A stretch of DNA of 64,000 nucleotides, taken from positions 42,578-106,577 of the forward strand of contig MFOT01000024.1 of NCBI GenBank assembly GCA_001782475.1, read 5' to 3'. The position numbers and the translations under genes are program-made. Of this stretch, positions 20,457 through 54,954 are shown one piece after another; position 1 is the first letter of the stretch, and every line of letters begins with the position of its first letter. The notes below the pieces were generated by a model. That model ran no database searches and was not told the DNA's origin. It saw only the letters and a program-made list of their open reading frames with translations. The DNA comes from Candidatus Levybacteria bacterium RIFCSPLOWO2_01_FULL_38_21. GTDB taxonomy: Bacteria; Patescibacteriota; Microgenomatia; Levybacterales; UBA12049.

Positions 20457-21394
20457 AACATGTTTTAGTAACAGGCGGCGCGGGTTTTATAGGCGCAAGT
20501 TTAGTTCGAAAGCTTCTTGAAAATGGCGATAAGGTTGTAGTAATTGATAATCTAATTACTTCAAACGGGGAAAGTATTAAACCGCTACTTAAAAATCCCA
20601 ATTTCAAATTTATCAAACGCGACATAATAAAACCTTTGCCTTCATCAATCATCAATCATCAATCATCAATTGGGCATATCTTCCATCTTGCCTGTCCGAC
20701 CGGCGTTCCGAATCTCACAAAACTTGCCAGAGAAATGCTACTTACCTCCGCGATCGGAACAATGAATGTTTTAGAACTTGCCAGAAAACACAAGGCAAAG
20801 TTTATATTCACAAGTTCTTCTGAAGTTTATGGTGATCCCAAAGTTTTTCCGCAGAACGAAAACTATACAGGCAATGTCAGCTCTGTAGGTATTAGAAGTC
20901 CATATGAAGAAGGAAAAAGATTTGCCGAAAGTCTGATTATGACTTACGTTCGAAAATATAATTTGGATGCAAGAATTGTCCGGGTGTTTAATACCTACGG
21001 ACCCCTGATGTCTATTAACGATACGCGCGTTATTCCAAAATTCTTAAAACAAATTAGTAAAAACCAGCCTCTGACAGTTCAAGGAGATGGCAGGCAAACA
21101 AGAACATTTTGTTACGTTGACGATCTAATAAAAGGTTTAGTTCTTCTTATGGACAAGGGGGGGGAGGGCGAAGTTTATAATCTCGGGAGTAACAAAGAAA
21201 TAAGTATAAATACCCTGGCTGGGCTCATGATAAAAATTACAAAATCTAAAAGTAAAACAATAAATATTAGTCGTCCGTCTCATGACCACAACCGCCGTCT
21301 CCCCGACCTGAGAAAAGCAAACAAACTTAATTGGTACACTAAGGTAGGCCTTGATGAAGGTTTAGAAAGGACCGTACGATGGTTTGGGTTTTAG
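20453..21394 (+). CDS. NAD-dependent epimerase/dehydratase (UDP-glucuronate decarboxylase/UXS-like)
   Basis: VLVTGGAGFIGASLVRKL ... PYEEGKRFAE (YxxxK). Contains an in-frame heptanucleotide tandem repeat encoding SSIINHQSSIG. Confidence 0.65.
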   Translation: MKHVLVTGGAGFIGASLVRKLLENGDKVVVIDNLITSNGESIKPLLKNPNFKFIKRDIIKPLPSSIINHQSSIGHIFHLACPTGVPNLTKLAREMLLTSAIGTMNVLELARKHKAKFIFTSSSEVYGDPKVFPQNENYTGNVSSVGIRSPYEEGKRFAESLIMTYVRKYNLDARIVRVFNTYGPLMSINDTRVIPKFLKQISKNQPLTVQGDGRQTRTFCYVDDLIKGLVLLMDKGGEGEVYNLGSNKEISINTLAGLMIKITKSKSKTINISRPSHDHNRRLPDLRKANKLNWYTKVGLDEGLERTVRWFGF

Positions 21395-22602
21395 CGTTCC
21401 TTACGCTTGCAGGATATAATTTTTCTTTTTGGCTAATTGTAGGAATAGCTAGATTTTTGTTCGAGAGAATCCCGCATTCTGATAAAAGAAAGAGGGGTCG
21501 GCCGTCAAAACCAATTTTGCCAAAAGACGTTGCGGCAGTCATTCCCGCGCATAATGAACAACGAACGATCGCAAAAGCAATAAGATCTCTTAGGAAGATT
21601 TTACCTGTGGGAAATATTTATGTTGCTAGCGACTACTCAACCGATAAGACGGTTAAAATTGCCAGATCTTTTAAAGTCAAGGTTTTAGACATTAGACCAA
21701 ACAGAGGAAAAGCAAGAGCATTGGTTTACATAATGAAACGCTATCATCTATTAAGCCGCTTCAAAGCAATAATTATTCACGACGCGGACGTTGAGGTTAG
21801 TAAAGATTATTTGAAAAATGCATTGCCATTTTTAAAAGACCAAAACGTAGCGGCGGTAGCAACTCACGGAGTAACAAGACTTAAGAACTACAAAGTGCTT
21901 GAGAGATTTTATATTACTTATAGGTTGAGACTTTGGAGAATTCTACAATACGGAATGCGTTTTGGTCAGACATGGAAATACACCAATGTAACTTATATCA
22001 TCCCCGGCAGTTTATCTCTCTATAGAACGAGGGTTCTTAAGAAACTTAAAATTGATGCACCTGATCTTATTATTGAAGATTTTAATATGACTTTTGAGGT
22101 GCGCAGAAAAAAACTTGGAATAATTGCCTATAATCCATCAATTTTTGGAGTTCATCAGGACCCTTACACATTTAGAGATTATACTAAACAATTAAGACGC
22201 TGGAATTTAGGTTTTTGGCAGACAGTTAAGAAAAACGGCATTTGGCCAAGTCTTTTCTGGCTTTCTATGGGGTCTTTTCTCATAGAACTTCTTCTTTATA
22301 CGTTTTTCATATTGTCCGTGCCAATTTTAATATTTATTTTCATTCTTCATTCCTTCAATCCGATAAGCATTCCCCTTGTATCATCTTACTTAACATTCCT
22401 TGATCTTCTCATTGGACTATTCCTTATGGATTATGTCCTTACTATAATTGCAGCGGCTGCGGAGAGAAAACCTGAAATGCTTATTTATGGTCTTGGCTTT
22501 TTCTTTCTTCGCTATGTTGATGCTATCATCTATACATATACTCTGCCTTTGGCATTTCTGGTTAAATCGAAGGGCACGTGGAGCAGTCCGGAGAGAAAGT
22601 AA
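21379..22602 (+). CDS. processive family-2 glycosyltransferase (NodC/HasA/PgaC/CesA-like, QxxRW)
   Basis: D, DAD, IEDFNMT (ED) and QLRRW motifs; one N-terminal and about four C-terminal TM helices. Confidence 0.7.
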   Translation: MVWVLAFLTLAGYNFSFWLIVGIARFLFERIPHSDKRKRGRPSKPILPKDVAAVIPAHNEQRTIAKAIRSLRKILPVGNIYVASDYSTDKTVKIARSFKVKVLDIRPNRGKARALVYIMKRYHLLSRFKAIIIHDADVEVSKDYLKNALPFLKDQNVAAVATHGVTRLKNYKVLERFYITYRLRLWRILQYGMRFGQTWKYTNVTYIIPGSLSLYRTRVLKKLKIDAPDLIIEDFNMTFEVRRKKLGIIAYNPSIFGVHQDPYTFRDYTKQLRRWNLGFWQTVKKNGIWPSLFWLSMGSFLIELLLYTFFILSVPILIFIFILHSFNPISIPLVSSYLTFLDLLIGLFLMDYVLTIIAAAAERKPEMLIYGLGFFFLRYVDAIIYTYTLPLAFLVKSKGTWSSPERK

Positions 22603-23667
22603 TTAGAAAAGCAATTTAAGGGCTTTTGTAATGGTAGAAATCTCATCTTCAGTTAAGCTTGGGTGGATAGGAAGAGCAAGGGTCGTATTTGATATATCCT
22701 CTGCATTTGGAAAATCTTTCTTAGGCAATTTCAGGTAACGATGTAAAAGCTGATAGTTTTCAATGGGAATGACTGTTGAGATTCCTTTTTTTGCAAGATT
22801 TAATTTAAACGAATCTCTGGTTTTTTTATCTTTGAATTTAATTATAAAGCGATAGTGATTTAAATTTTTATCCTCTTTTTTTGGCCAAAACTCAATTTCT
22901 TTTTGTTTTTTAAGCACAGGGGTGTATTTCGAAGCAATATATCTTCTTTTCTTAAATAAATTATCAATCCTTTTAAACTGCACATTGCCAATAGCGGCGG
23001 CAAAATCTGTCAGCTGATAATTATATCTTACTCTGTAATTCTTACGACGATCATAATGGATCAGATCTCTGACGATTTTGTAATATTTTTTATTATTAGT
23101 TACAAGCATTCCTCCATGACCCGTGGTTATTACTTTTGTTGCATAAAATGAGAAGATGGTTATGTCTCCGAATGATCCCAGAGGTTTACCTTTATAGAAA
23201 CCTCCAAGAGAGTGCGCACAGTCTTCGACTATCAGAAGTTTAAATTTCTTGATCTCATCGATTTTTGCCGGAAATCCAAGAACATGAGGAACAATAATTG
23301 CTTTTGTTTTCTTATTAATTTTTTTCTTAATCTCCAGAGGATCAATTGTGAACCAATTTTTTTCAATATCTACGACTACAGGAGCAGCACCCATATAATA
23401 TATTGCGTTAAGAAGTGCAGTACAGACATAAGTTGGAACTATAACCTCATCTCCTTTTTCAACCCCGAGTGCGATTAGACTTAGATGAAGAGCGGCAGAA
23501 CCTGAACTTGTCGCAACGGCATATTTTCCTTTGACATAATTTTTAATATTGTTCTCAAGTTTCCTAGCTTCCTTATTTGGTATAAGCCACTTACTCCTCA
23601 GAGTCCTTGCAACTGCTTTTATTTCTTGCTCATCAAGGTAAGGCGTATTATGTAAAATCTGTTTCAT
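22603..23667 (-). CDS. DegT/DnrJ/EryC1/StrS-family PLP-dependent sugar aminotransferase
   Basis: KYAVATSSGSAALHLSLIALGV...DEVIVPTYVC...; the PLP lysine region is conserved. Confidence 0.8.
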   Translation of the reverse strand: MKQILHNTPYLDEQEIKAVARTLRSKWLIPNKEARKLENNIKNYVKGKYAVATSSGSAALHLSLIALGVEKGDEVIVPTYVCTALLNAIYYMGAAPVVVDIEKNWFTIDPLEIKKKINKKTKAIIVPHVLGFPAKIDEIKKFKLLIVEDCAHSLGGFYKGKPLGSFGDITIFSFYATKVITTGHGGMLVTNNKKYYKIVRDLIHYDRRKNYRVRYNYQLTDFAAAIGNVQFKRIDNLFKKRRYIASKYTPVLKKQKEIEFWPKKEDKNLNHYRFIIKFKDKKTRDSFKLNLAKKGISTVIPIENYQLLHRYLKLPKKDFPNAEDISNTTLALPIHPSLTEDEISTITKALKLLF

Positions 23668-23671
23668 AAAA

Positions 23672-25015
23672 CTAATGCTTCATTCCTCCGCTTAGAAAAA
23701 GAAGTGCATTTAATCGCATGCCTTCATTGGTAGAATAATCAGGGCTTCTTAGTGTAATTGTATTTTCCAAAAGATGTTTTTGATATCCTGGTTTAGTGGA
23801 GATAACCGCCGCCATTGCTGCTGTGGCGACAAAGGCTACCTCGACGTATTCAGTTTCCAGTGGGGTACCGGTTTTAGGATCATAACCTCCTCGGATTTGA
23901 TCTGGATTTTCTGTCTCAAAAAATGCATTAATCTGCTGTAGTTGAGCTATCGCGTCTTTATCTTCATACCATAGCGCTGCCATCCCTTGTCTCCATGGGA
24001 TACGAATTGCTTCATATCCGAATTTATCGTTGTTCCCTCCTCTTTGAGGCACCATACTTCCATCTGCAGTTGTCCAATCTGGCGGCAGAAGAGTTTGGCG
24101 TTTTGCTTTGATTGCAGCAAAAACTTGCCGTCCGGCCTCTGTGACGCGATCCCAATCGGTATTTCCTGTGTACTCTTTAAACAACTGATAATATGCAGGG
24201 GAATAGTATGAAGGGTTTGTTTCATAAAATCCTCCCCAATCATTCCCGCCTTTTAAAACATATGACCCCGGCTCAACGTCATGCTTTAAAATATTTTCAA
24301 TCATTCTCGTTGCGTCATCTCTGTATCCACCCCATATGTTATCAGCAATAATAAGTCCATAAGCTATATCCAGATCAGCGTCTGCTGCGGAACTATCATC
24401 AGCCGGAGTATTATCTGCATTTATTTCATTGCTCATAAGCCCATCCGAATTTAAATGAGACTTGGCATATTTCCATAACGAGTCAAATGTAGGCTTATCT
24501 TCAGCATTAACTGCGTATATCATACTGTATGCAACAACTTCTGAATTTGAATTTCTTTTATCTTTGTCCCATATCGCACGAAGTTCATCAGCGTCTCCTA
24601 ATCCCTCATTTCTAACCCAGGCGCTTTTCCATTCTTCGTATCCTTTTTGAAAAGCTTCTTTTGCAATTTGTCGTATTTCGGGATCAATTGAGATACCTTC
24701 TACTGGCGCTGTAGTAGTGGATTCTGTTACAGTTGGCGTTGTTGGGGGCCCTGCGGTGATAGTTGGTTCTGTTGTGGCTGACTCTGTTGTAATTGAGGTT
24801 GCTGTTGGATCTACTATTGGCTCCGCTGAAGGAATAACAGATACAGTGTCAACATTTCGCGTTGGGGCTGAACTACCTCCATTACTTGAAGAGCAAGCCT
24901 TCAGTGCTAAATCCAAGCCAGCGATCCCTGTTAATTTAAAAGCTCCTCTTCTAGAAATAACTGGACCATTTAACAAATGATCTAATTTTTCTGCTAATCG
25001 TTCAATTCTATCCAT
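23672..25015 (-). CDS. Tat-lipoprotein glycoside hydrolase family 8 (endoglucanase / chitosanase / xylanase family)
   Basis: AADADLDIAYGLIIADNIWGG matches the GH8 signature ATDADxDIAyAL..A...WG; Tat signal plus lipobox (SRRGAFKLTGIAGLDLALKAC); PT-rich linker. Confidence 0.6.
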   Translation of the reverse strand: MDRIERLAEKLDHLLNGPVISRRGAFKLTGIAGLDLALKACSSSNGGSSAPTRNVDTVSVIPSAEPIVDPTATSITTESATTEPTITAGPPTTPTVTESTTTAPVEGISIDPEIRQIAKEAFQKGYEEWKSAWVRNEGLGDADELRAIWDKDKRNSNSEVVAYSMIYAVNAEDKPTFDSLWKYAKSHLNSDGLMSNEINADNTPADDSSAADADLDIAYGLIIADNIWGGYRDDATRMIENILKHDVEPGSYVLKGGNDWGGFYETNPSYYSPAYYQLFKEYTGNTDWDRVTEAGRQVFAAIKAKRQTLLPPDWTTADGSMVPQRGGNNDKFGYEAIRIPWRQGMAALWYEDKDAIAQLQQINAFFETENPDQIRGGYDPKTGTPLETEYVEVAFVATAAMAAVISTKPGYQKHLLENTITLRSPDYSTNEGMRLNALLFLSGGMKH

Positions 25016-25023
25016 AATTAAAA

Positions 25024-27540: not shown

Positions 27541-27582
27541 AGAAGAAAACTTCTTTCAAGAAGAATTTCTAGAATGAGAGGT

Positions 27583-29364: not shown

Positions 29365-29365
29365 A

Positions 29366-30144: not shown

Positions 30145-30226
30145 ACCTGTGCTGAGTATACCGAAGTATATCCCCCTCCTGGGGATATTATCACAAAAAT
30201 AAAAATACATTGCAAGTAGGAAAAGG

Positions 30227-31558: not shown

Positions 31559-31645
31559 CTGAATTCTAGATAGCTTTTTAACATTTGTAAAGAGACAAAA
31601 CTAAGTTTTCTGCCGACGGGCTAGAATTTTTCCAAGAGGGCTTCT

Positions 31646-32110: not shown

Positions 32111-32116
32111 ATTATT

Positions 32117-34308: not shown

Positions 34309-34315
34309 AAGAGGC

Positions 34316-34807
34316 TTATCCGCTTGTGCCGGGAAATTTCTCTACTCTCTCTCGAATTTTTTGAACAAGGGGCGGCGGTTCCTTTTTCTTTTTTTCCGCA
34401 AGCTCAACCATCTCCTCTCTTTCCTCCCGCTCAACTTTCTCAGTAGGCCTTTCTTCCTTCTGAGATTTAGGTGGATTTACTAAAGGTTCGTAATAAACTG
34501 CTTTATGAAGCTCTCGTCTTAACTCTTCAAGCTTTTTTTTCTTTTCTATTGCCTGCGGAGTATTATCCTCGGGCTGTTGAAGGTTTTGATTCGTTGATTT
34601 ATTTGGCAACTGACCTACCTTCTCATCGCTTTCTTTATATAATGACTTAACAATATCTTGCGTATCTTGACTTCGCCCACTTATTTGTGATCCGGCCGCT
34701 TTTGCCGTATCGGAAACTGCAGCAGCAGCAACTTTTCCTGATTTTTTTATCAGGGAGATTCCCGACTCCAGTGCCTCCTCCCCGCTTAAAACTCCCCCCT
34801 TACTCAT
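34316..34807 (-). CDS. hypothetical charged protein
   Basis: K/E-rich low-complexity sequence. Confidence 0.3.
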   Translation of the reverse strand: MSKGGVLSGEEALESGISLIKKSGKVAAAAVSDTAKAAGSQISGRSQDTQDIVKSLYKESDEKVGQLPNKSTNQNLQQPEDNTPQAIEKKKKLEELRRELHKAVYYEPLVNPPKSQKEERPTEKVEREEREEMVELAEKKKKEPPPLVQKIRERVEKFPGTSG

Positions 34808-35438
34808 AAACTTGTCTTCCCTCCATAGCCCTTTGAAGTGTTATTTCATCTGCATATTCAATATCTGCTCCAACCGGAAGTCCTCTTCCAATCCTAGTAA
34901 TTGTTAATTGTTGATTGTTAATTGTTGATTGTTCGCGAAATTTTTTCGCGATATACATCGCAGTTGCCTCCCCCTCCATTGTAGGATTTGTTGCTAAAAT
35001 TATCTCTTTAATTCCTTCTTTCTTAAATCCATTTGATGATTCCTTGACTCTTTCCAAGAGTTCTTTTACGTAAATCTCATCCGGCCCGATATTGTTTAAC
35101 GGATCAATTCTTCCATGAAGAACATGATAGACCCCGTTGTATTTTCCGCTTTTTTCAAAAGACAAAACATCCAAAGGGCTTTCAACAACACAAATTGTTG
35201 AGCTGTCTCTTTTTTCATCAGAACAGATATGGCACGGATCGCTTTCCGCAACCAAAAAACAGATTGAACACAAAACTGTATCTCTTTTTAGATTTTGGAC
35301 TGATAAAGAAAACTTGTCCAATTCACCTTGAGGTACATGCAAGAGATAAAAAGTTAAACGCTGGGCAGTCTTAGGACCAATCCCTGGTAATCTCTCGAAA
35401 GATTCAACCAGATTTTGTATTGCTTTTGGAATTTTCAT
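34800..35438 (-). CDS. recR: recombination protein RecR
   Basis: HhH motif (LPGIGPKTAQRL), C4 zinc finger (CSICFLVAESDPCHICSD) and Toprim domain; carries an in-frame heptad-repeat insert TINNQQLTITR. Confidence 0.85.
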   Translation of the reverse strand: MKIPKAIQNLVESFERLPGIGPKTAQRLTFYLLHVPQGELDKFSLSVQNLKRDTVLCSICFLVAESDPCHICSDEKRDSSTICVVESPLDVLSFEKSGKYNGVYHVLHGRIDPLNNIGPDEIYVKELLERVKESSNGFKKEGIKEIILATNPTMEGEATAMYIAKKFREQSTINNQQLTITRIGRGLPVGADIEYADEITLQRAMEGRQVYE

Positions 35439-39065: not shown

Positions 39066-39146
39066 AAGCTAAGATTTATGATTTATGAATTATGATTTAT
39101 GAATTTTAAAATGGTCAATGGTAAATGATAAATTGTCAATCGTTTG

Positions 39147-40141: not shown

Positions 40142-41089
40142 TTAAATCTTTTCCAATACTTTAATTATTTCTGTCAAAGATAGCTTCGTTGGCTTCATTT
40201 TTGGATTTTTGACAGAGCCGTTTAAAAGCATTTTCCGACCGATATGAAGAAACCAAGTTGCTTGAGGGTCCATTTTTTTTAATCTTTCATAAACTAACGT
40301 CAAATCTATATTCTTGTTGATTGTTGATTGTTGATTGTTGATTGTTGATAAAGGCTTTGCCTTTATCCTAACATACCCTTTTCGCGGGTCTTTGCGAACA
40401 ACAATTACATATCCCATTTTTTGAGACAATTTTATAACGGTGTCATTAATCGTTTCAAAACCTATTCCACGGCCGTACCGCGTTTTAAATTTTTTTCCTT
40501 TTTCTTTAATCTCCCGCTCTGCCCAAATTCTGTTTTCAAATTCGTGCAAAACCGCATCAAGGCATTGCATTACGAAACCTACATAATATTCATCCTGATC
40601 GGGCCTTTGAACCTTAAGTCCATCTAAAATGCCTACTAGAGAAAATTCATGGTAATCCGCCGTTGGGTCTTTCCAAAAAACTTCTTTAAAATGATCAACA
40701 TCCACAACTACCTTAACCATTCTTCCTACAGCTTCCATCCGGTCTTTTACTCCTTCTGAACTCTGAATTCTGAACTCTGAATTCTGAACTCGTTTGACGA
40801 AGTCAAACGTAAGGCTTGCCGCACACACATTTGTATCGGCTACTTGATGATGATCCAAAGGACCAAGGCCCGTATCTACATGAATAACCTCATCATCTCC
40901 TATTTTCTCTATCGCATTGCGCGGGGAGCCCCGCCCGGGCGGGGCGACCTCAGCGCTTTTTCCAATTCGTTCTCCGGCTGGAACGAATCGGACGACCGCA
41001 TCTTCCCATCCCGGTAAAAATCTTTTTATAAGCCAAACAGAAGTTATCGCATCCAAATCCGGCGAACTATGCCCAATTATAATTTTCAT
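40142..41089 (-). CDS. DHH-family phosphoesterase (NrnA-like)
   Basis: MKIIIGHSSPDLDAITS and HVDTGLGPLDHH motifs; contains three in-frame repeat insertions (heptad STINNQQSTINK, ctgaact repeats, GC-rich palindrome). Confidence 0.65.
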   Translation of the reverse strand: MKIIIGHSSPDLDAITSVWLIKRFLPGWEDAVVRFVPAGERIGKSAEVAPPGRGSPRNAIEKIGDDEVIHVDTGLGPLDHHQVADTNVCAASLTFDFVKRVQNSEFRIQSSEGVKDRMEAVGRMVKVVVDVDHFKEVFWKDPTADYHEFSLVGILDGLKVQRPDQDEYYVGFVMQCLDAVLHEFENRIWAEREIKEKGKKFKTRYGRGIGFETINDTVIKLSQKMGYVIVVRKDPRKGYVRIKAKPLSTINNQQSTINKNIDLTLVYERLKKMDPQATWFLHIGRKMLLNGSVKNPKMKPTKLSLTEIIKVLEKI

Positions 41090-41194
41090 AAATTAAACTC
41101 AATAGTAAATGGTCGATTGTAAATTGTCAATTGTTAATTGTCGATGGCGGGGTTGACAAAAATAAAAAAATGAACCAATATATAATTACAGAGT

Positions 41195-42742: not shown

Positions 42743-42743
42743 A

Positions 42744-43724
42744 TTATTTCTTCTTAACTTCCCTGCCCTGAGCTTTTATCCTGAGCGGAGTCGAAGGATG
42801 CCGAATGGGGTGGCCGCCGAAAGCGTTTCGAAGAGCAGAAATCATTTTTGCGGTAAAGGAATTTTGAATTTTTGGATTCTCTTGAGATCTTTTTCTAAAA
42901 TCAAGCGATCTTTCAATAATCTCAACCGGGACGTTTTCTTCTTTCGCCTGATCAATCGTCCAATCTGCTTCTCCCGAGCTTTCGATAAAACCTGAAGATT
43001 TTGATAAATTCGGATCTTTTTTTAAAACATCGACTACCCTATCAAGCATAAAGCCTGAAACCAGTGTCCCTTTTTGCCAAAGCTTTGCAACTTTAAGAAG
43101 ATCAAATTCGTACGGAGCTTTTTCTAAAACCTCAAACCCTTCCGAAAGACTTTGCATAATTCCATATTCTATTCCGTTATGAACCATTTTTATAAAGTGT
43201 CCTGCTCCTCCCTCTCCAAAATATTCATATCCTCCATTGGGTTTTGAGAGAGTATCCAAAATTGTAGTGATGTATTGATACGCTGAGACATCGCCGCCGA
43301 CCATTAGAGGGTATCCAGTTTTTTCGGCAATAATTCCCCCCGAAACTCCAATTCCCAAAAATCTTATCCCTTTTATCTTTAACTGCCTATATCTTCTTGC
43401 AGTATCTTTAAAATAAGAATTTCCTCCATCTATAATAATATCTTCTGTTTCTATAAATTTGACAACTTCATTTAAAGTACTCTCTGTTACGGAACCTGCC
43501 GGAAGCATTAACCAAATAACTCTTGGTTTTTCAAGACTTTTAACCATCCACTCTATAGTTTTAAATAGTCTGTATTTTGCGCCTTTAAAAGAAGCCAGTT
43601 TCGCTTCTAATTTTTTAAAAGGCTCCTCTGATCTATTCCATATTGAAACTTCGTGTCCGTCCAAGATAAGTTTTGCCACTATCCGACTTCCCATTTTTCC
43701 AAGTCCAATAAACCCGACTTTCAT
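42744..43724 (-). CDS. gnd: 6-phosphogluconate dehydrogenase, decarboxylating (short YqeC/GntZ-like form)
   Basis: MKVGFIGLGKMGSRIV NAD-binding N-terminus; 6PGDH C-domain; adjacent to zwf and pgl. Confidence 0.7.
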   Translation of the reverse strand: MKVGFIGLGKMGSRIVAKLILDGHEVSIWNRSEEPFKKLEAKLASFKGAKYRLFKTIEWMVKSLEKPRVIWLMLPAGSVTESTLNEVVKFIETEDIIIDGGNSYFKDTARRYRQLKIKGIRFLGIGVSGGIIAEKTGYPLMVGGDVSAYQYITTILDTLSKPNGGYEYFGEGGAGHFIKMVHNGIEYGIMQSLSEGFEVLEKAPYEFDLLKVAKLWQKGTLVSGFMLDRVVDVLKKDPNLSKSSGFIESSGEADWTIDQAKEENVPVEIIERSLDFRKRSQENPKIQNSFTAKMISALRNAFGGHPIRHPSTPLRIKAQGREVKKK

Positions 43725-43804
43725 AATTTCTAATTACTCCAATTCCTAATCAAATCTCAAATTTTATCAGTATTTATTCACTATTCTTAAATCTCAAATC
43801 TTAT

Positions 43805-45232: not shown

Positions 45233-45304
45233 ATTTATAATTTACTATTGACTATATACCATTTTAAATCATAAATGGTCAATGATAAATGGTCAATTAT
45301 ATTT

Positions 45305-46135
45305 CTATAACTTTTGATCTGTAATTAAAAGAGTTTTTTTGGAAACTTGGGGAGTTTTTAGAAATCTAGCCGGAATTTCTTCTATTGGTCCTTTCGAAAA
45401 CAAAAGCTCTAAGGCCTTCTTCTTTTCCTTTCCAAAAACAAGAAGAATTAAAAGATCCATTTTTGAAAGGGCATGAATTGTCAAAGTGATTCTTTCCCCA
45501 AAGCCAAAAGGCGGAGCCGGAGAACCTTCTTTTGACATTGACTTAGGATCTCTAAATTCCGAAACAAATAAATTTTTTCTTTCTCTTTTGAAAAGTGGAT
45601 TTTTAAAGTCAGGCCGATTTGGAGCGATACTTGCAGTATGACCATCGACTCCTAGGCCTAAAATCGAAATGCATTTTGGAAATTGTGTAAATAATTGACT
45701 CACAATGCTATTATATCTCTCCGCCACCTTCCTTCTTTTCCTCATATTTGTATCTCCACCCTTGGGGTGGAATCGTAGGTCTTGGTGAAGGATTGGGAAA
45801 AACGGAATGTGCTCAGATGCAAAATAACCAAGAAGTCCTGTTTTCTTAATTGATAGTTCATTGCTTATCCTATGAAGCGCTGGCCCAAATCGCTCATCTA
45901 CCATCGCAACTGTCCCGGGTTTTAAAATTTTCTCTTTTGCTAAGATTTGGTATAGAGGTTTTGGGGTGGACCCGCCTGACAAAAACAAAACAGTTCTTTC
46001 ATCAACAATTTTATATATCTCCCTTTTTGCAAGCTCAACCCCTGGGGTTGAGCCGTAAACTTTAAGTATTGAAATCCCATCTTTATTGTTGACCCCGATT
46101 GAATCGAGGTTGACTTTTGAACTTAAATTTTTCAC
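45305..46135 (-). CDS. pgl: 6-phosphogluconolactonase
   Basis: VLFLSGGSTPKPLY motif; GlcN6P-isomerase/6PGL fold. Confidence 0.75.
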   Translation of the reverse strand: MKNLSSKVNLDSIGVNNKDGISILKVYGSTPGVELAKREIYKIVDERTVLFLSGGSTPKPLYQILAKEKILKPGTVAMVDERFGPALHRISNELSIKKTGLLGYFASEHIPFFPILHQDLRFHPKGGDTNMRKRRKVAERYNSIVSQLFTQFPKCISILGLGVDGHTASIAPNRPDFKNPLFKRERKNLFVSEFRDPKSMSKEGSPAPPFGFGERITLTIHALSKMDLLILLVFGKEKKKALELLFSKGPIEEIPARFLKTPQVSKKTLLITDQKL

Positions 46136-46161
46136 TTTTAATTTTTAATTTTTAATTTATT

Positions 46162-47298
46162 TTATGGTTTTGGAAGAATTGGCTGGCCAGAGATAAAACG
46201 AATAATATCGCTTAGGGTAATAGCTGCGATTAAGGCAAGAAGAATTGCCATTCCAATTGCGTGCGCATAACTTTCAAATTTTGTAGAAACTTTTCTGCCT
46301 GTTACGGCTTCTATTAGAATAAAAAAAAGTCTTCCCCCATCAAGCGCCGGAATCGGCAAGATATTCAAAATCGCAAGATTCAAAGACAGGAGCGATACAA
46401 AAGATAAAACCGCCAAAGGACCTATTGCTACAAACTGTCCGGTTAATTGAGCAATTCCAACAGGTCCTGCAACTCCTTTTGGCGCTTGTGCATGGACAAG
46501 TAACTGATAAACAATTCCTGCAAGACCCGACAAAATAAGCCAAGAGTATTTAAGAGCTTCTAAGAGCCCTACAAACGGTGCTTGATATAGTGAATATTTT
46601 TTAGTAATAACATTGGAAGTTATTCCTACTCCCATTGGTCCTTGATCGGATGGATAATTTTTTCGCGGAATTACCTCTACATTTCTTTCTTTTTTAGATT
46701 TGTCTAAAACTCTGAGAGCTAATTTCTGCCCTAAATGCTGTTTTGTGACTGATACTAATTGAGAAGGGCTTGTAATTTTTTCACTATTGATAGTAACAAT
46801 CTGATCTCCTGTTTTAAGTCCCGCTTTTTGAGCAGGAGAATCCTTTACTATCTCTGTTATAAAAACCTTATCGCCGGGAGTCTGGACGCCTGATATTCCA
46901 TAAAAATAAGTGAGTATAAAAACTGCTAAAAGAAAATTCATTACAACCCCAGCTATTACAACCAATGCTCTTTGCCAAACAGGTCTTGAGAAGAATGCTC
47001 TTTGAGCATCTTCAACTTTCAACTTTCCACTTTCAACTTTCAACTTTCCGCCGCCAGCGCTGTCTTCTCCGTAAAGTTTTACAAATCCTCCGATAGGCAA
47101 AAAGTTTATTGAATATATTGTTTCTCCTCTTTTTATTCCGAACGCTCGGGGCGGAAGACCAAATCCAAATTCCTCAACTCTTATCCCTAACTTTTTCGCC
47201 ACAAAAAAATGCCCCGCCTCATGTATTAGAACGAGAACCGTCAATATTATCAAAAAAACTAAAATTGTTATTAGCATAAAATTTAAGTCAAAAGGCAA
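46162..47298 (-). CDS. rseP: RIP metalloprotease RseP (site-2 protease, M50)
   Basis: LIHEAGHFFVAKK (HExxH), PDZ domain, LDGG motif; contains an in-frame caacttt heptad repeat encoding GGGKLKVESGKLKVED. Confidence 0.8.
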   Translation of the reverse strand: MPFDLNFMLITILVFLIILTVLVLIHEAGHFFVAKKLGIRVEEFGFGLPPRAFGIKRGETIYSINFLPIGGFVKLYGEDSAGGGKLKVESGKLKVEDAQRAFFSRPVWQRALVVIAGVVMNFLLAVFILTYFYGISGVQTPGDKVFITEIVKDSPAQKAGLKTGDQIVTINSEKITSPSQLVSVTKQHLGQKLALRVLDKSKKERNVEVIPRKNYPSDQGPMGVGITSNVITKKYSLYQAPFVGLLEALKYSWLILSGLAGIVYQLLVHAQAPKGVAGPVGIAQLTGQFVAIGPLAVLSFVSLLSLNLAILNILPIPALDGGRLFFILIEAVTGRKVSTKFESYAHAIGMAILLALIAAITLSDIIRFISGQPILPKP

Positions 47299-47409
47299 AA
47301 GTCAAAGGTCAAAAGTTAAAGTAAAAAGTTAAAAGTTTTTGAATTTTGAATTGCTCTTCGGTCTTGAGCTCAGGGTCGAAAGATAATTTTGAATTTTGCA
47401 TTTTGAATT

Positions 47410-47970
47410 TTAAATTTGGAGGAGTTCTTCTTCTTTTTTCTTCCCCATTCCCTCAATATCTTCCATGAGTTCATCTGTCAGTTTTTGAACTTCTTTTTCC
47501 ATTCTTCCCGCCTCATCTTCTGAGATTGACTTATTGTTTTGCTGTTTTTTAATATCGGCCATTGCCTCATGTCTTACTTGGCGAACCATAATCCTCCCGT
47601 TCTCAAGTTTTTGTTTCATTAAATGGATTAGCTCCTGACGCCTCTCCTCAGATAATCTTGGGATAGAAATTCTTATTATCTGTCCATCAATTACGGGATT
47701 TAAGCCAAGATTTGCTTCAAGAATTCCTTTTTGAATTTCTCCGATTATTGAATGGTCAAAAGGAGTAACAGCGAGGGTCTGCGGATCAGATGTTGTAATA
47801 GTTGTAAGCTCCATTACTTTAAGTCTTTGAGTTGCGCCATATGCATTTATAACTATATTTTCTACAAGAGAAGGGGCTGCCCGCCCGGTTCGAACTGTTG
47901 AAAGATCATTTCTTACAACCTCAAGTATCTTGTTCATTTTTGACCGGGCATCCGCAATTAGCTGATCCAT
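47410..47970 (-). CDS. frr: ribosome recycling factor
   Basis: VRTGRAAPSLVENIVINAYG... characteristic RRF sequence. Confidence 0.9.
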   Translation of the reverse strand: MDQLIADARSKMNKILEVVRNDLSTVRTGRAAPSLVENIVINAYGATQRLKVMELTTITTSDPQTLAVTPFDHSIIGEIQKGILEANLGLNPVIDGQIIRISIPRLSEERRQELIHLMKQKLENGRIMVRQVRHEAMADIKKQQNNKSISEDEAGRMEKEVQKLTDELMEDIEGMGKKKEEELLQI

Positions 47971-48009
47971 TTGAGAAAAAGTATACGACAGATCCTGTGA
48001 TTTAGCAAA

Positions 48010-48462: not shown

Positions 48463-48465
48463 ATT

Positions 48466-49350
48466 TTACTTTTTACTTCTCGCCCTGAGCGAAGCCGAAG
48501 GGTTGACTTTTGTTTTTGGCCTTCGGTCTTTAACTTTTGACACCGCTGAACTTTTACTCTTTATCTCTTTCTTTTCTTCTTTATTTTTTAATTTCTCGCC
48601 CTGAGCTTGTCGAATGGGTTCTTTTTCATTTTTTATTTTATTCCGCCCCTCAATCCATGCATCTATTATATAACTTGTTATAAGTTTTATCGATCCTGTC
48701 GCATCATCGTTTGCCGGAATTGGATAATCAATAATTTCGGGGTTTGCGTTTGTATCAACGATTGCGACTGTTGTAACGCCCATTTTTCTTGCCTCATCAA
48801 TTACCAAGTCTTCAAGATGAGAGTCTATTACAAATACTGCATCCGGAATTTTTTTAAGATCTGCGATTCCTCCGTATAATAATGCGAGTTTTTGCCTTTC
48901 CTTTTCCCAGAGCCCTATCTCTTTCTTAGTATATTTTGATCTTTCTTCCTCACTTCTAAGTTTTTCGGCAAGATCTTTCAATTTTTTAAAGTTCTTTGCA
49001 ACCTCGGAAAAATTAGTAAGCGTTCCGCCTACCCATCTTTCTGTTACATAAAAAATTTGATTTTCTATTTTACCTGAAGATTGCTGTTTTGCCTTTTTAA
49101 CTTCTTCCTCCACAACCGACCGGGCTTGTCTTTTTGTTCCAACAACAATTAAGCTTCCGTTTTTTTGCGAAAGATTGAAAATAAATTTTCCAGCTTCTTC
49201 AAGACCTGCTTTGGTTTTGGTAAGATCAACTATATGAATATTATCGCGGGCTTCAAAGATGTAGTCTCGGGCTTTTGGATTTCCGCGCGTTACCTGATGT
49301 CCAAAATGGCATCCTGCCTCAAGAAGTTCTTCAAGCGTAATTTCCCTCAT
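48466..49350 (-). CDS. rpsB: 30S ribosomal protein S2
   Basis: MREITLEELLEAGCHFGHQVTRGNPKARDYIF. The ORF-track start at 49488 adds a 46-aa hydrophobic extension that is probably not translated. The C-terminal tail carries two GC-rich repeat insertions. Confidence 0.85.
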   Translation of the reverse strand: MREITLEELLEAGCHFGHQVTRGNPKARDYIFEARDNIHIVDLTKTKAGLEEAGKFIFNLSQKNGSLIVVGTKRQARSVVEEEVKKAKQQSSGKIENQIFYVTERWVGGTLTNFSEVAKNFKKLKDLAEKLRSEEERSKYTKKEIGLWEKERQKLALLYGGIADLKKIPDAVFVIDSHLEDLVIDEARKMGVTTVAIVDTNANPEIIDYPIPANDDATGSIKLITSYIIDAWIEGRNKIKNEKEPIRQAQGEKLKNKEEKKEIKSKSSAVSKVKDRRPKTKVNPSASLRARSKK

Positions 49351-49524
49351 AATCCTTAACCTCCGTCCTAAAAGTTTTAAATCAGGATTATTCTGAATAG
49401 GACGTGTATAATAGTAGCAATAATACAAAAAATTAGCAGAAAAAACAACAAGTAAAATTATACAAATATTGACAACCAAAAAAAACATAACTACGATAGA
49501 TATTGCTGGTTAACGAAGTCTAAA

Positions 49525-50394: not shown

Positions 50395-50402
50395 TACTAG
50401 CT

Positions 50403-50768
50403 TTATCCCGCTGACGTTCTTGTGAAGTCAACAATTGTTATTTCATATCCGTCAATTCCGTCAACCCCGATTGATCTTTCATATTCGCCGACATGTTTTA
50501 AGAAATAAGAAGTTTCCTCCAGAGTAGGATTTCCATTAATCAAATGGCTAAGGCATCTGTCAAATTGTTGCCTAGACAATGTTCCATCATTAAACTGTCT
50601 TGCTTGTTCCTTTCTTCTTTCTGCTTTTACCCCCTTACTGTTAGGTCTCCCTAACACCTTATTTGCTGTATCCAAACCTCCTCTGATTCTTCTTTGGTTT
50701 AACGAATGTCCAGCCAAGGGACTTCCGCTTACTCTTATTTCCCATCTTACTTCTTTTGCTCTTGACAT
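50403..50768 (-). CDS. hypothetical protein
   Basis: 121-aa ORF, no motif. Confidence 0.3.
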   Translation of the reverse strand: MSRAKEVRWEIRVSGSPLAGHSLNQRRIRGGLDTANKVLGRPNSKGVKAERRKEQARQFNDGTLSRQQFDRCLSHLINGNPTLEETSYFLKHVGEYERSIGVDGIDGYEITIVDFTRTSAG

Positions 50769-50849
50769 ATGATTTTTTTAATTTGCGTAGCGCAATCTGA
50801 TTTTACCATAACTTGCTAGAATTATTAGAAGGGTTAACATATTGAACGT

Positions 50850-52217
50850 TTATGGAACTGGAAAATTACTACAAAACTCCTTTACTTGCCTATTAATTTC
50901 CAAAAGTTTTTTGTTCCTTACAATCTTTCTTTTAAACTCCTTCCAAAACTCGCTTCTTTTTTCTCTTGTGGTGAGCTTGCCGAATCCATTTTGTAATCGA
51001 CCCCCCTTTATTTCTTCAATTACCTGATTGATCCATTCAGCAATTTTTACCATCTCTTTTTCCTTCATGCCTCTTGTTGTCAGAACTGGAGTTCCTAAAC
51101 GAATTCCCGATGGGTAAAACGGCGGCATTGGATCATTTGGTACGGCATTTTTGTTAACAACTATTCCCGCAACCTCCAGAGCAAAAGCTGCCAAAGCGCC
51201 GTTTACCTTCCTATTCGAAAGATCAATCAACAAAAGATGATTATCCGTTCCTCCGCTTACAAGATTAAATTTAAATTTCCTGAGCTCTTCAGCGAGGACT
51301 TTTGCATTTTTGACCACCTGCTGACTATATTTTTTAAATGACGGGAAACCTGCTTCTAAAAGACTAACTGCAATTGCCGCGGTTTGATTATCATGCGGCC
51401 CTCCCTGTAATCCCGGAAAGACTGCTTTATCAATTTTTTCTCCCAACTGTGAATCTTTTTTTAGCCCCTCACCAGTCACCATGATGATAGCTCCCCTTGG
51501 ACCCCTAAGAGTCTTATGTGTCGTCGTCATAACAATATGGGCATAAGGAACTGGTGAAGGGTGAGCGCCAGCGACTATTAATCCTGCAATATGGGAAATA
51601 TCGGCTAAAAGATATGCTCCTACTCTGTCTGAAATCTTTCCAAATCTTTTAAAATCTATAATTCTAGGATATGCGGTTGCTCCACAGACAATTATTTTTG
51701 GTTTTTCTTTTAAGGCAAGTTTTTCAACTTCATCATAATCGATTAATCCGTTTTTATCCAAATGATATGGCACCACTTTATAGTATTTTCCCGAAATTGA
51801 AACAGGCGATCCGTGGGTTAAATGACCTCCAAAGGCAAGCGAGAGTCCCATTATTTTATCTTTAAAAGGTTTAAGAAGCGCAAGATAAACTGCAGTATTT
51901 GCAGGAGATCCGGAATAAGGCTGGACATTAACATAAGAAACTCCAAACAATTTTTTCGCCCGCTCCTCTGCCAAGATTTCTACACTATCTATAATGGTAT
52001 TCCCCTGATAATATCTTTTCTTAGGATACCCTTCCGAATATTTATTTGTTAGAACACTTCCCAATGCCTCCATTACAGCCTTTGAAGTATAATTTTCAGA
52101 GGGAATCATCTCCAAAACCTCTTCCTGCCTTTTTTCTTCCTCTTTTATTAAATTGTAAATCTCAGGATCTGTCTGTTTTAATTTTCTCATAATATTATTT
52201 CCGAGCGTTTTGAACAT
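50850..52217 (-). CDS. glyA: serine hydroxymethyltransferase
   Basis: LTNKYSEGYPKKRYYQGN and the TTHKTLRGPRG PLP-lysine region. Confidence 0.9.
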   Translation of the reverse strand: MFKTLGNNIMRKLKQTDPEIYNLIKEEEKRQEEVLEMIPSENYTSKAVMEALGSVLTNKYSEGYPKKRYYQGNTIIDSVEILAEERAKKLFGVSYVNVQPYSGSPANTAVYLALLKPFKDKIMGLSLAFGGHLTHGSPVSISGKYYKVVPYHLDKNGLIDYDEVEKLALKEKPKIIVCGATAYPRIIDFKRFGKISDRVGAYLLADISHIAGLIVAGAHPSPVPYAHIVMTTTHKTLRGPRGAIIMVTGEGLKKDSQLGEKIDKAVFPGLQGGPHDNQTAAIAVSLLEAGFPSFKKYSQQVVKNAKVLAEELRKFKFNLVSGGTDNHLLLIDLSNRKVNGALAAFALEVAGIVVNKNAVPNDPMPPFYPSGIRLGTPVLTTRGMKEKEMVKIAEWINQVIEEIKGGRLQNGFGKLTTREKRSEFWKEFKRKIVRNKKLLEINRQVKEFCSNFPVP

Positions 52218-52721
52218 TTACCTCTCTAAATTAATGAATCTGAATTTAATTCCGTTTGATTCTCCGGTTTCTTCGCTTACTACTTTTTTAAACTGCGAAT
52301 AATCCGGGAAAAATGTATCGCAACTAAAGTCCCCCTCAACTTTTGTTAAGTATATTCTATTTACAATACCTTTTTCCAGTACTTCGCGAAAAACATGTGC
52401 TCCCCCAATTATAAAAATCTCGCGATTTTCAGACTTTTTTGCTTTATTAATAGCATCTTCCAACGAATTCGAAATTACTATTCCCTCTTTTTTAAAATCT
52501 GGATTTTGTGTCACAACTATATTTACTCTGTTCGGAAGTGGCTTTCCAATATACTCCAGAATTGATTCAAAAGTTTTTCTCCCCATTATAACAGGGTGTC
52601 CGGTCGTAAGTTTTTTAAATCTCTTAAGATCCTCAGAAATATGCCATGGAATTGTATTATCTTTACCGATTCCGCCTCTGCTGTCTATTGCTACGATTAA
52701 ACTAATTCTTGGTTTGCTCAT
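52218..52721 (-). CDS. folA: dihydrofolate reductase
   Basis: ISLIVAIDSRGGIGKDNTIPWH ... GRKTFESI. Confidence 0.85.
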   Translation of the reverse strand: MSKPRISLIVAIDSRGGIGKDNTIPWHISEDLKRFKKLTTGHPVIMGRKTFESILEYIGKPLPNRVNIVVTQNPDFKKEGIVISNSLEDAINKAKKSENREIFIIGGAHVFREVLEKGIVNRIYLTKVEGDFSCDTFFPDYSQFKKVVSEETGESNGIKFRFINLER

Positions 52722-53274
52722 TGCATTTTTTTCTCAAAACAAGTATATTATACCAATTGCGAGGTGGCAAGCATTCATAAACAAAACAGAAATTTCTATC
52801 CCATATAGAATAGATCGAAACCCTGACACGACTGACGTTGAGAGGGTTTTCATAAATCCAGAGGCAGGCACCAATTGCGAACTTTTAGTTCATTCAATCG
52901 TTTCTGCAAGGGGTTTTGAACTCCCCCGACTTAGATCTTCTGATCTATACGAAGATACTAATTATACTAGTCTCGTTGAAGACATATCACAAGCTCAAAC
53001 TGGAGATATAATAGGTCTTAGCCCAATAAATAAAAATGGTTTTAGAGGAATTCACGTCGCAATGATATGGATTGACGATAGCAAAAAAATACACATAGTT
53101 CATAATGCAAGACACACAGGAGGAGTACGATTGCAGACACTCGAGGATGCAATGCAACATCCTGAGCATGCAAGAATTGCATGGATTAAAAGACCAATTA
53201 GAGAAAATCCTACTCTCTTACAATCAGAGAAACTCAGAGAGCTTGATTTTGGCTATTTAGCAAGAGATCTTTGA
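52714..53274 (+). CDS. hypothetical protein
   Basis: 186-aa ORF; no confident motif. Confidence 0.3.
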   Translation: MLIAFFSQNKYIIPIARWQAFINKTEISIPYRIDRNPDTTDVERVFINPEAGTNCELLVHSIVSARGFELPRLRSSDLYEDTNYTSLVEDISQAQTGDIIGLSPINKNGFRGIHVAMIWIDDSKKIHIVHNARHTGGVRLQTLEDAMQHPEHARIAWIKRPIRENPTLLQSEKLRELDFGYLARDL

Positions 53275-53441
53275 GCAACCCTAACAGCGTCTTCCTCCCG
53301 GAAGTCCGTATATTCCTGTCAGATACCCTGCTTTCTCGGTGTGTTTTACTAAAAGAACCTCATCGTCTTTAATAATTAAAACAGCGACAGTCGGGATTAT
53401 TTCTATCATTTATTAAAAATATTAACCGTTGGATTGTAGTG

Positions 53442-53455
53442 ATGTATCAATACAT
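53442..53455. promoter_or_regulatory. candidate operator palindrome ATGTATCAATACAT (downstream of the TrpR-like gene)
   Basis: Part of a 20-nt exact match GTGATGTATCAATACATCAA shared with 61058-61077. Confidence 0.4.
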
Positions 53456-53464
53456 CAATATGAG

Positions 53465-53851
53465 TTAGCTAAACCATCTTTTTACGAATTTTGAACCACC
53501 GTACGGTCCCTTTTTTAGAAAGTCTTTCTTTTCTCTATCCATTTGTTTTTCTATTCTTTCTAAAGCTAGAATAATTCCGCCCTCTCCCTCTTCAATTATT
53601 CTTTTCATCCTCGAAACGGTTTGAGTACTTGTTTTTGCTTTCAATGCAACAGTTCTTAAGTCCAGACCTTTTATCAAAAGGCTTGCTATGTGCCATCTTC
53701 TTTTTAGCATTCGAAGCTCAGATTTTGTCAGGATATCTTTTAAAAATTTTTTAATTTCCTCCGTATCTTTTAAAGAATTTATAATCTCATAGAGAAAATG
53801 AATCTCTCTAAAATAATCTTCATTTTGAATTTCCTCCCTTGGTTTTGACAT
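53465..53851 (-). CDS. TrpR-like (YerC/YecD family) DNA-binding protein
   Basis: LTKSELRMLKRRWHIASLLIKGLDLRTVALKAKTSTQTVSRMKR fits the Trp-repressor-family HTH. Confidence 0.55.
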   Translation of the reverse strand: MSKPREEIQNEDYFREIHFLYEIINSLKDTEEIKKFLKDILTKSELRMLKRRWHIASLLIKGLDLRTVALKAKTSTQTVSRMKRIIEEGEGGIILALERIEKQMDREKKDFLKKGPYGGSKFVKRWFS

Positions 53852-53895
53852 AAAATAATTATACCAATAACTTATAGCCTATCAATTTTGTTTCC

Positions 53896-53909
53896 ATGTA
53901 TCAATACAT
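53896..53909. promoter_or_regulatory. candidate operator palindrome ATGTAT-CA-ATACAT (upstream of the TrpR-like gene)
   Basis: Inverted repeat with 2-nt spacer; identical copies at 53442-53455 and 61064-61077. Confidence 0.45.
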
Positions 53910-53985
53910 CATTATAGTATCACAACAAAACAAACGATAATAGTTCTAAAAAATACAAGGAGTATTCGAACTAAATCGCAAAATT

Positions 53986-54954
53986 TCAGAAGCCTCCGAC
54001 AACTGTGACTTCTCCTTTGATTGGAGGGTGGGAATCATATCCTTCCAAAGTGAAATCTTCAAATTTTATATCGTCTATGTCTTTTAATTTTGGATTGATT
54101 TTCATTTTGGGAAACGGCCGTGGTTTTCTTTTAATTTGCTCTTTGACCTGATCAAAATGATTGCTGTAGATATGCGCATCTCCAAAGGTGTGAACGAAAT
54201 CCCCGGGAGGATAACCCGTCAGATGGGCAAAAATCATCGTAAAAAGCGCATAGCTTGCTATATTAAACGGAACGCCCAAAAAAAGATCAGCGCTTCTTTG
54301 ATATAGCTGGCAGGAAAGCCGGCCATTTATTACATTAAACTGGAAAAGCGTATGGCAGGGCGGAAGAGCAACCGATTGTCCCGGCTTTGCCATTTCATAT
54401 ACAAACTCCGGATTCCAGGCAGAAATTACAATATGCCGCCTCTCCGGTGTTTTTTTTATCTTTTGAATCGCCCATTTTACCTGATCGATTTTCCGCCCAT
54501 CTGATGCCGGCCATCTTCTCCACTGGACTCCATAAACAGGCCCCAATTCTCCATATTTTTTAACAAACGGATGATCGGATGATGAGCTTTTTATTTTTAC
54601 AACATACTCTTCCTGCGTCAATATTTTTGAGTTTTGAGTTTTGAGTTTTGAGTTTTGGGCTACTTTGTAGCCCTTGTATCCCCATTCATCCCAAATATGA
54701 ACATCGTTATCAACTAGATATTTTATATTTGAATCGCCTCTTAAAAACCAGATCAACTCATGCAAAATTCCCCTAAGAAAAACTTTTTTCGTAGTCAAAA
54801 GAGGAAAACCGGTTGATAAATCAAAGCGAATTTGCCTTCCAAAAACACTCCTAAACGTTATTCCGGAATTAAACTCATGCTTCTCAAACCCATTTTCCAT
54901 GACATCTGTAAGTAAATCTAGATATTGATATTCCGGATGAAGATTTTTTTTCAT
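53986..54954 (-). CDS. thyA: thymidylate synthase
   Basis: [25 protein letters not shown] (catalytic Cys); in-frame ttttgag heptad-repeat insertion ([11 protein letters not shown]). Confidence 0.9.

Follow-up and report, generated by a model that had tools for sequence, protein, structure and literature searches.

Heptanucleotide arrays in genes and spacers

We analysed a window of 64,000 nt (64 kb) from Candidatus Levybacteria bacterium RIFCSPLOWO2_01_FULL_38_21 (assembly GCA_001782475.1, contig MFOT01000024.1, positions 42,578 to 106,577) for its heptanucleotide arrays, head-to-tail runs of a 7-nt unit that lie in housekeeping genes and in the spacers between genes. ThyA homologues and exact-sequence matches assign the window to this Microgenomates genome, which comes from groundwater of the Rifle aquifer. 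Six arrays lie in coding DNA and are predicted to be translated. On the plus strand, a UXS-like gene (UDP-glucuronate-decarboxylase-like epimerase/dehydratase, 20453-21394) carries TCATCAA ×4.1 at 20642-20670, with the peptide SSIINHQSSIG. The other five are in genes on the minus strand and are given here in sense, with the forward form of the unit in brackets. These are ACAATCA/ACAATTA ×5.1 (TAATTGT/TGATTGT) at 34898-34933 in recR (34800-35438), encoding EQSTINNQQLTIT; TCAACAA ×5.1 (TTGTTGA) at 40314-40349, site 1, and GTTCAGA/ATTCAGA ×5.3 (TCTGAAC/TCTGAAT) at 40755-40791, site 2, both in a DHH-family gene (40142-41089); AGTTGAA ×5.4 (also written TGAAAGT; TTCAACT) at 47011-47048 in rseP (46162-47298), encoding GKLKVESGKLKVE; and CTCAAAA ×4.7 (TTTTGAG) at 54625-54657 in thyA (53986-54954). 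Pfam identifies the hosts as UXS-like, RecR, DHH-family, the M50 protease RseP and thymidylate synthase, and identifies DnaX and YbeY on either side of a spacer array.

That spacer, between ybeY and dnaX, holds GATTTAT ×4.3-4.7 at about 39070-39102 and a second array, AAATGGT ×3.4-3.6, at 39109-39133. Other intergenic arrays are AATTTCT ×3.6 (16433-16457), a degenerate TCAATTG ×6.3 directly upstream of the DHH gene start (41099-41142), a 14-nt unit (AATCATA AATGGTC) ×2.5 between zwf and pgl (45267-45301), and two adjoining degenerate arrays, AACAATT ×4.7 and GTTAATT ×4.6 (62930-62996). Several touch gene ends: AATTTTT ×4.7 runs across the junction of the rseP stop and the pgl start (46126-46158), AAGTCAA/AAAGTAA ×7.6 lies upstream of, or at, the rseP 5' end (47285-47337), and AATTTTG ×4.7 covers the frr 3' end and the spacer beyond (47385-47417). 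Two degenerate arrays, TAAATTC ×4.7 (55490-55522) and ATTTAGG ×2.9 (55589-55621), are in or around the tmk-dcd spacer. The six arrays listed in the original prediction, which was made from sequence alone, all exist, at or 1-7 nt from where it placed them and with the units and peptides it assigned. Its list was correct as far as it went, and incomplete by about ten period-7 arrays, mostly intergenic.

Period 7 is the sole enriched repeat period in the window, and the excess is far beyond chance. Tandem Repeats Finder returned 72 rows, of which the strong ones are nearly all of period 7 or 14. When the window was scanned at lags 2 to 21 for 21-nt segments that match themselves at 19 or more positions, lags 7 and 14 each gave seven regions, lag 21 gave one, and every other lag up to 20 gave none. 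Exact repeats of at least three copies numbered four for period 7, one for period 4 and none for periods 5-6 and 8-15. Chance is excluded as the source of the arrays because the same lag scan on shuffled window sequence yielded no region. The window thus holds head-to-tail arrays of 25-40 nt, as expected of long simple sequence repeats (LSSRs), and its shuffled sequence holds none. Independent ENA, JGI and NCBI assemblies reproduce the arrays base for base, so these are not assembly artefacts; one ENA scaffold matches 20.8 kb of the window at 100 % identity. A search against Rfam found no RNA family overlapping any array of the window.

Distribution across lineages

Loci were fetched around thyA in reference genomes (80 loci) and around proS in metagenomes (49 loci). 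Period-7 arrays of at least three copies occur at 0.19 per kb in the window, 0.31 in Levybacteria relatives, 0.03 in other Microgenomates, 0.08 in other Patescibacteria and 0.007 in bacteria outside the Candidate Phyla Radiation (CPR), and further Levybacteria contigs reach 0.5 to about 1 array per kb. The commonest repeat period is 7 in every group of fetched loci, which agrees with the published predominance of heptanucleotides (PMC4679880, PMC4692102). Only the 7-nt unit is in excess, other periods being essentially absent from the window and all fetched loci: 204 kb of Levybacteria DNA contain 38 period-7 arrays of at least 28 nt, and almost none of periods 5, 6, 8 and 9 exceeding 29 nt. 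Heptanucleotide arrays are therefore a lineage trait, reflecting a bias that other Patescibacteria share and that is particularly strong in Levybacteria. Our literature search found no report of heptamer repeats in CPR/Patescibacteria.

Patescibacteria arrays typically have 4.3-5.4 copies, including those of a Peribacteria locus with 60 % GC. A ceiling of about five copies is not universal, because a non-CPR locus (L069, Bacteroidales UBA4417) carries far longer arrays, TTTACGA ×6.9, CACTAAG ×17.3 and TATAACT ×10.1, within positions 1621-2480.

Shared loop sites with different units

The coding arrays sit in loops that orthologues also use. In the UXS-like protein, the array accounts for 7 aa that human UXS1 (4gll) lacks, and in RecR for 6 aa absent from the solved structure 3vdp. 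The thyA array falls within the 'small domain' of Lactobacillus-casei-type enzymes, which is absent from E. coli-type enzymes. In an AlphaFold model of ThyA with a mean predicted local distance difference test (pLDDT) score of 84, it forms a loop between two helices (residues 105-113), and residues 101-110, with a pLDDT of 62, are among the lowest-scoring blocks of the chain. RecR has a second insert, exactly 7 aa relative to 3vdp and away from the array, at residues about 133-139 (NGFKKEG), which may be a decayed older heptamer array.

At these shared sites, relatives carry arrays of similar length and different units. The thyA site of relatives has TTCAGAG/A (L002), ATGGAAA (L006), CTCAAAA/GTCAAAA (L010) or GCGAAAA (Daviesbacteria L012), and no array in L016, L008 and L013. 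At the rseP site, Levybacteria L002 has an AAATTCA-type array in a loop of equal length, and L010 and L012 have none. The recR site holds CTCAAAA in L103 and L105 and, in L099, the ACAATCA/ACAATTA unit of the window again. At DHH site 1, relatives have CTCAAAA, ATCTCAA, TGAAAAT/GGAAAAT or TTAAAAG. Here L104, L142, L101 and L103 align gap-free, L097 and L105/L102 are off by 2-3 aa, L099 has an array plus a 24-nt insert, and the sequences of the array-less outgroups L111, L108 and L106 fall short by 11 aa (33 nt). DHH site 2 carries ACAATCA-type arrays in L099, L101, L103 and L105 and decayed TTCAGA arrays in L097 and L142.

The UXS loop is diverse as well. Most of the 120 Microgenomates homologues inspected have a 7-aa periodic peptide there, with unrelated sequences (for example SSIINHQSSIGH, KWKMINDKWKID, ISNFQFSISNFQY and RNWKLEIRNWKFD). 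The peptides SSIINHQ, KWKMIND, ISNFQFS and RNWKLEI are mutually unrelated and show no heptad hydrophobic pattern. One unit occurs at this site in contracted and expanded form, PNNFEL in P0228 versus PNNFELLTLNFEL in P0243, and the DNA of L148 reads GAAATTG/A ×5.4. Loop lengths in 7-aa-spaced classes were also sought among 120 ThyA homologues; no clean classes emerged, lengths ranging from 13 to 50 aa with other indels contributing.

Spacers vary too. Between ybeY and dnaX only a few nucleotides (TAG-TT-ATG) are present in L101 and L104, and several other relatives have about 80-150 nt with heptamer runs, sometimes two opposed. In some of the spacers compared (window 39066-39146; L099, L103, L105, L106, L142) the two runs are roughly reverse-complementary, as in L105, where AAATTCN ×5 is followed by AGGATTT ×4. 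Judged from sequence, such paired runs could form long hairpins.

Sizes and reading frames of coding arrays

Array sizes were compared between coding and non-coding DNA in 188 kb of non-redundant Levybacteria sequence, of which about 90 % is coding. Period-7 arrays of 18-20 nt number 3 in coding and 14 in non-coding DNA, those of 21-24 nt 3 and 5, those of 25-28 nt 0 and 6, those of 29-36 nt 20 and 8, and those of 37-41 nt 7 and 0 (Fisher's exact test for 25-28 nt versus 29-41 nt, p = 0.0007). Coding DNA is thus near-empty between chance-level matches of 14-16 nt and 29 nt, and coding arrays cluster at 29-40 nt. A gap of this kind is predicted by three-unit steps from seeds of 8-19 nt. The continuous non-coding size series (18-20, 21-24, 25-27 and 29-33 nt) argues for stepwise growth. 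Per kb, arrays of at least 25 nt are 4.5 times denser in non-coding than in coding DNA, and about two thirds of those of at least 29 nt lie inside conserved housekeeping genes.

Within genes, the copies of an array are identical in DNA though each is read in a different frame, and the 7-aa peptide period equals three units. All 27 coding arrays of at least 25 nt have the A-rich strand as their sense strand, because TAA, TAG and TGA must be avoided in every phase. No frame-broken allele was found at 171 orthologous array sites in the fetched loci, each judged from a single tblastn alignment and several of them near-identical copies.

Strain-level variation

The contig L001 aligns with window positions 64000-43986 at 99.87 % identity over 20,015 columns, with five single-nucleotide polymorphisms (SNPs) and one indel. 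The indel removes 21 nt, or three units, from the thyA array, which has 1.7 copies in L001 and 4.7 in the window. The L001 allele is a three-unit contraction, since the closest outgroup proteins (P0002, P0006) have the long form. This is a whole-unit change in copy number between strains, as in LSSRs, seen as a single event. Six further contigs (L085, L094-L096, L146 and L147), 3-21 kb long and with 0-4 SNPs, match the window in copy number at each array they span, bringing the near-identical array-spanning contigs to seven, from six samples. The arrays are therefore mutable yet not hypervariable. Exact-protein look-ups, cluster members and an all-versus-all megablast of the loci yielded no close-strain polymorphism beyond the thyA indel.

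A second thyA allele, found in three independent assemblies (L094, L095 and L096), is a nonsense mutation (TCA to TAA) at window position 54731, codon 75. Gene callers split it into open reading frames (ORFs) of 74 and 211 aa, and the 4.7-copy array is intact. The truncated ThyA entry P0135 (211 aa) had been a candidate for a frameshifted array allele and was rejected on these grounds, the mutation being some 90 nt upstream of the array. Some strains of this organism may be losing thyA or able to do without it. The original prediction placed the arrays in essential genes; the hosts are indeed housekeeping genes, and the case for their essentiality is weaker than it assumed, three assemblies carrying this premature stop.

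Two contigs assembled from other samples, L086 and L087, break off within the recR array (window 34894-34910). Two RecR entries also stop at this point: P0124, which was called on L087, and P0125, which comes from a separate run. At its tail, L087 carries a divergent array, ACAATCA ACAATTC ACAATTA ACTATTA. Either heterogeneity of the population at this array or noise at contig ends could account for these endings. Substitutions between near-identical strains fall in tight pairs 2-10 nt apart (19838/19841, 20619/20621, 46007/46017 and 47411/47420), which could be multi-nucleotide mutation events or consensus artefacts. The pair 20619/20621 is about 21 nt upstream of the UXS array, and a substitution at 54662 is five nt past the thyA array. 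Two of the five L001 SNPs are at the AATTTTG array (47385-47417), at 47411 inside it and at 47420 three nt beyond it.

A 24-nt GC-rich element within arrays

A short AAAGTAA array at the rpsB C-terminus is interrupted on the minus strand by a 24-nt GC-rich element, CCCTTCGGCTTCGCTCAGGGCGAG (48479-48502), which is in frame (8 codons, PSASLRAR) and, though array-associated, is itself no heptamer repeat. Diverged copies are present on the same strand of the window at about 48595-48618 and 42774-42797. In L105 the recR array contains an identical copy (14922-14945), and variants with 1-4 mismatches occur in L099, at three places where they interrupt arrays, and in L008. A mismatch scan of shuffled window sequence gave no matches. 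The element thus occurs at several unrelated places and is present or absent at orthologous sites: the recR site has it in L105 and not in L103, and DHH site 1 has it in L099 and not in L103. Deleting it restores a continuous array, with no target duplication.

The sequence has the appearance of a tiny mobile element with heptamer arrays as its target. Its complement contains the motifs GCGAAGC and CCGAAGG. Folding gives a weak hairpin of 4-5 bp (z about -0.6 to -1.1); one variant alters both sides of a hairpin pair, which is suggestive and not significant. The small dispersed repeats (SDRs) of Nostoc attributed to Elhai et al. 2008 are reportedly 21-27 nt long, dispersed and often embedded in tandem heptamer repeats. 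Our element resembles SDRs, as so described, in being very small, dispersed and confined to some orthologous sites, and differs in lying in frame within coding arrays of a CPR bacterium; the likeness is one of description. A separate 38-nt hairpin insert, with a fold z-score of -3.9, is present in the recR gene of L099.

Origin of the arrays

The arrays are probably slippage-prone heptanucleotide microsatellites filtered by selection on reading frame, that is, mutational by-products that remodel loops and not on/off switches. A lineage-wide mutational bias, most likely strand slippage in replication or repair, would produce them; we infer slippage because copy number changes by whole units and non-coding sizes form a stepwise series. 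Arrays in non-coding DNA would grow and shrink unit by unit, up to about 33 nt. In genes, selection would keep units that are stop-free in all three phases, arrays at surface loops with room for 7-12 additional hydrophilic residues, and gains or losses of three units at a time (21 nt, 7 aa), which preserve the frame, with three-unit expansions arising as one event or in a rapid series. Over time, the array at a given loop would contract, re-expand and decay like an accordion, with a presumably neutral turnover of units, and repeated cycles of this kind would explain why one loop holds different near-perfect arrays.

Several points weigh against this account. Simple slippage cannot take a 12-nt seed to a length 21 nt greater in one step, and the model gives no reason for a 7-nt unit or for a stop near 33 nt in non-coding and 40 nt in coding DNA. 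The only copy-number polymorphism is a contraction, three-unit expansion not being directly seen, and it comes from consensus assemblies, which hide minority alleles. The fetched loci represent two genomic neighbourhoods and are phylogenetically non-independent, and the coding and non-coding calls are crude, made by greedy selection of ORFs of at least 70 aa. Finally, unit families recur at unrelated sites, CAATCAA in recR and DHH and CTCAAAA in thyA, recR and DHH, for which constraint, common ancestry or the copying of one array into another might be responsible.

The original prediction allowed two readings, contingency-like slipped-strand switches or arrays tolerated only at multiples of three units, and the data favour the latter. 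The sole strain-level indel in 20 kb spans exactly three units (thyA, 4.7 versus 1.7 copies) and is the one copy-number change revealed by strain comparison, a check that the prediction had proposed; the UXS array adds 7 aa (21 nt) compared with human UXS1; and no coding array measures 25-28 nt. Switches that turn genes off and on by gain or loss of a single unit are hardly credible. Seven is not divisible by three, so each single-unit change would shift the frame, and this is the one of three hallmarks of contingency loci that the arrays share, coexisting frame-shifting alleles not having been seen in the fetched loci and hosts of variable function being missing. The host genes (thyA, recR, rseP, the sugar-nucleotide decarboxylase and the DHH-family gene) have housekeeping and not surface or restriction functions, and the tracts comprise only 4-5 units. 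Copy number is shared among near-identical contigs save for one in-frame three-unit change, none of the 171 spanned sites is frame-broken, and the sizes that single-unit steps would give are those that coding arrays avoid. The endings of L086, L087, P0124 and P0125 at the recR array may hint at heterogeneity. The thyA null allele in three assemblies implies that loss of thyA is survivable, but it is a point mutation beside an intact 4.7-copy array.

Two further explanations were weighed. An enzymatic or mobile process might paste pre-formed arrays of about 30-35 nt as single events, in keeping with the tight range of 4.3-5.4 copies across Patescibacteria, even in the 60 % GC Peribacteria locus, with the 33-nt insert at DHH site 1 relative to outgroups and with the recurrence of unit families at unrelated sites; entry of the 24-nt element into arrays without target duplication implies that small-insert mobility exists in these genomes. 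We nevertheless regard such insertion as very unlikely, since unit-by-unit growth is what would be expected to give the continuous non-coding size series, units are highly diverse, the observed polymorphism is a whole-unit contraction to 1.7 copies, the UXS site holds contracted and expanded alleles of one unit (P0228 and P0243), and no associated gene was identified. A selected function is likewise highly improbable, whether the arrays served as 7-aa loop modules (heptads or interaction surfaces) or as binding sites or translation signals in a 7-nt register. Peptides at one site are unrelated between species and lack a heptad hydrophobic pattern, the identity of copies in DNA despite three reading frames points to DNA-level duplication, and the thyA loop is modelled at low confidence. 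Extra loop length is kept across many Microgenomates at the UXS, thyA and DHH sites, and many intergenic arrays abut start codons, as do the TAACTGA repeats of Beggiatoaceae, for which a translational role was suggested (PMC4679880); against this, non-coding DNA has the same period and size, and array-bearing spacers are wholly absent in close relatives.

A more far-reaching reading is unlikely: an unusually active 7-nt-specific process in Levybacteria/Patescibacteria that keeps rewriting about 30-40 nt at fixed loops of conserved housekeeping proteins, three units at a time within genes. Such a process would keep arrays near-perfect over deep divergence and would make them a landing pad for the 24-nt in-frame mobile element. 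It would amount to a lineage-specific engine of loop and spacer evolution beyond generic slippage, possibly tied to reduced replication or repair.

Relation to known repeat systems

The arrays belong to the heptanucleotide LSSR class known since 2007. As outlined for Mrazek et al. 2007, heptanucleotides outnumber every other LSSR class in most bacterial genomes, with polymerase slippage as the suggested source, and coding regions favour units divisible by three (PMC4679880, PMC4692102). Within that outline, our arrays are alike in the over-representation of 7-nt units relative to other lengths and in sporadic, lineage-specific abundance; they differ in their CPR host, in having about two thirds of those of at least 29 nt within conserved housekeeping genes and in the directly visible three-unit frame filter. 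The GGGAATC repeats of Xanthomonas and GGGGA(C/T)T repeats of Nostoc represent one G-rich, quadruplex-prone, intergenic motif (PMC4692102). Like them, the present arrays mostly have about four units, vary in length and sequence between species at the same intergenic positions and include some inverted pairs, but they have many different AT-rich units and are often coding. The TAACTGA repeats of Beggiatoaceae, cyanobacteria and Bacteroidetes come in 2-6 copies per set, often just upstream of start codons, with a minority inside ORFs in a stop-free orientation that gives 7-aa peptide repeats, and strains differ in 7-nt increments (PMC4679880). The present arrays are alike in this range of copies and in their frequent placement shortly before start codons. 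That system has one favoured unit (PMC4679880), whereas the unit here is site- and lineage-specific.

In Haemophilus influenzae, contingency loci include ORFs with tetranucleotide repeats and the hmw promoters with their 7-bp repeats, and contingency tracts are long, hypervariable within populations and located in surface or restriction-modification genes (PMC2651432, PMC8262952). Our arrays share with them a slippage-prone unit not divisible by three, and differ in being short, stable, in housekeeping genes and always in frame here. The short tandemly repeated repetitive (STRR) sequences of heterocystous cyanobacteria attributed to Mazel et al. 1990 are said to be intergenic, genome-dispersed tandem heptamers of the units CCCCAGT, TTGGTCA and CAACAGT. 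The present arrays, too, are tandem heptanucleotide repeats dispersed in the genome, with other units and not in a cyanobacterium. The STRR, TAACTGA and GGGAATC units and the hmw unit ATCTTTC do not occur in tandem, even twice, in the window. Coding repeats of Borgs reportedly have unit lengths divisible by three. In contrast to such Borg repeats, the unit here has 7 nt and the peptide period equals three DNA copies read in three frames. As outlined in the Borg study, those coding tandem repeats are recent and fast-evolving and create disordered protein regions, and our arrays resemble them in that tandem DNA repeats in ORFs add low-complexity peptide segments (PMC9879509).

The preference of bacterial long repeats for 7-nt units was an untested hypothesis as of 2015 (PMC4679880, PMC4692102). 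Being small, gene-dense and rich in arrays, these CPR genomes lend themselves to a clean natural experiment on it, with non-coding DNA displaying the raw stepwise mutation spectrum and coding DNA the spectrum after frame selection (the size gap, three-unit steps and stop-free A-rich units). A non-triplet microsatellite can steadily supply loop insertions of 7-12 residues to conserved enzymes, and inserts encoded by arrays are to be expected when CPR proteins are annotated or modelled structurally. A non-triplet repeat within a gene, by the same token, need not be a phase-variation switch.

Other features of the window

Hexanucleotide repeats of the CCAACC type, encoding Pro-Thr on the plus strand, occur at 5729-5745, 8041-8272 and 58935-59000, within large plus-strand ORFs adjoining dockerin/cohesin-like genes. 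Unlike the heptamer arrays, these are linker repeats of an ordinary, triplet-compatible kind. A gene for a 23S-rRNA-intervening-sequence protein lies at 10960-11319. Rfam reports a match to group II intron domain D1-D4 at 63773-63851 (38 bits, slightly over threshold), which overlaps the start of a 171-aa LAGLIDADG-type ORF (region 63316-63851, minus strand).

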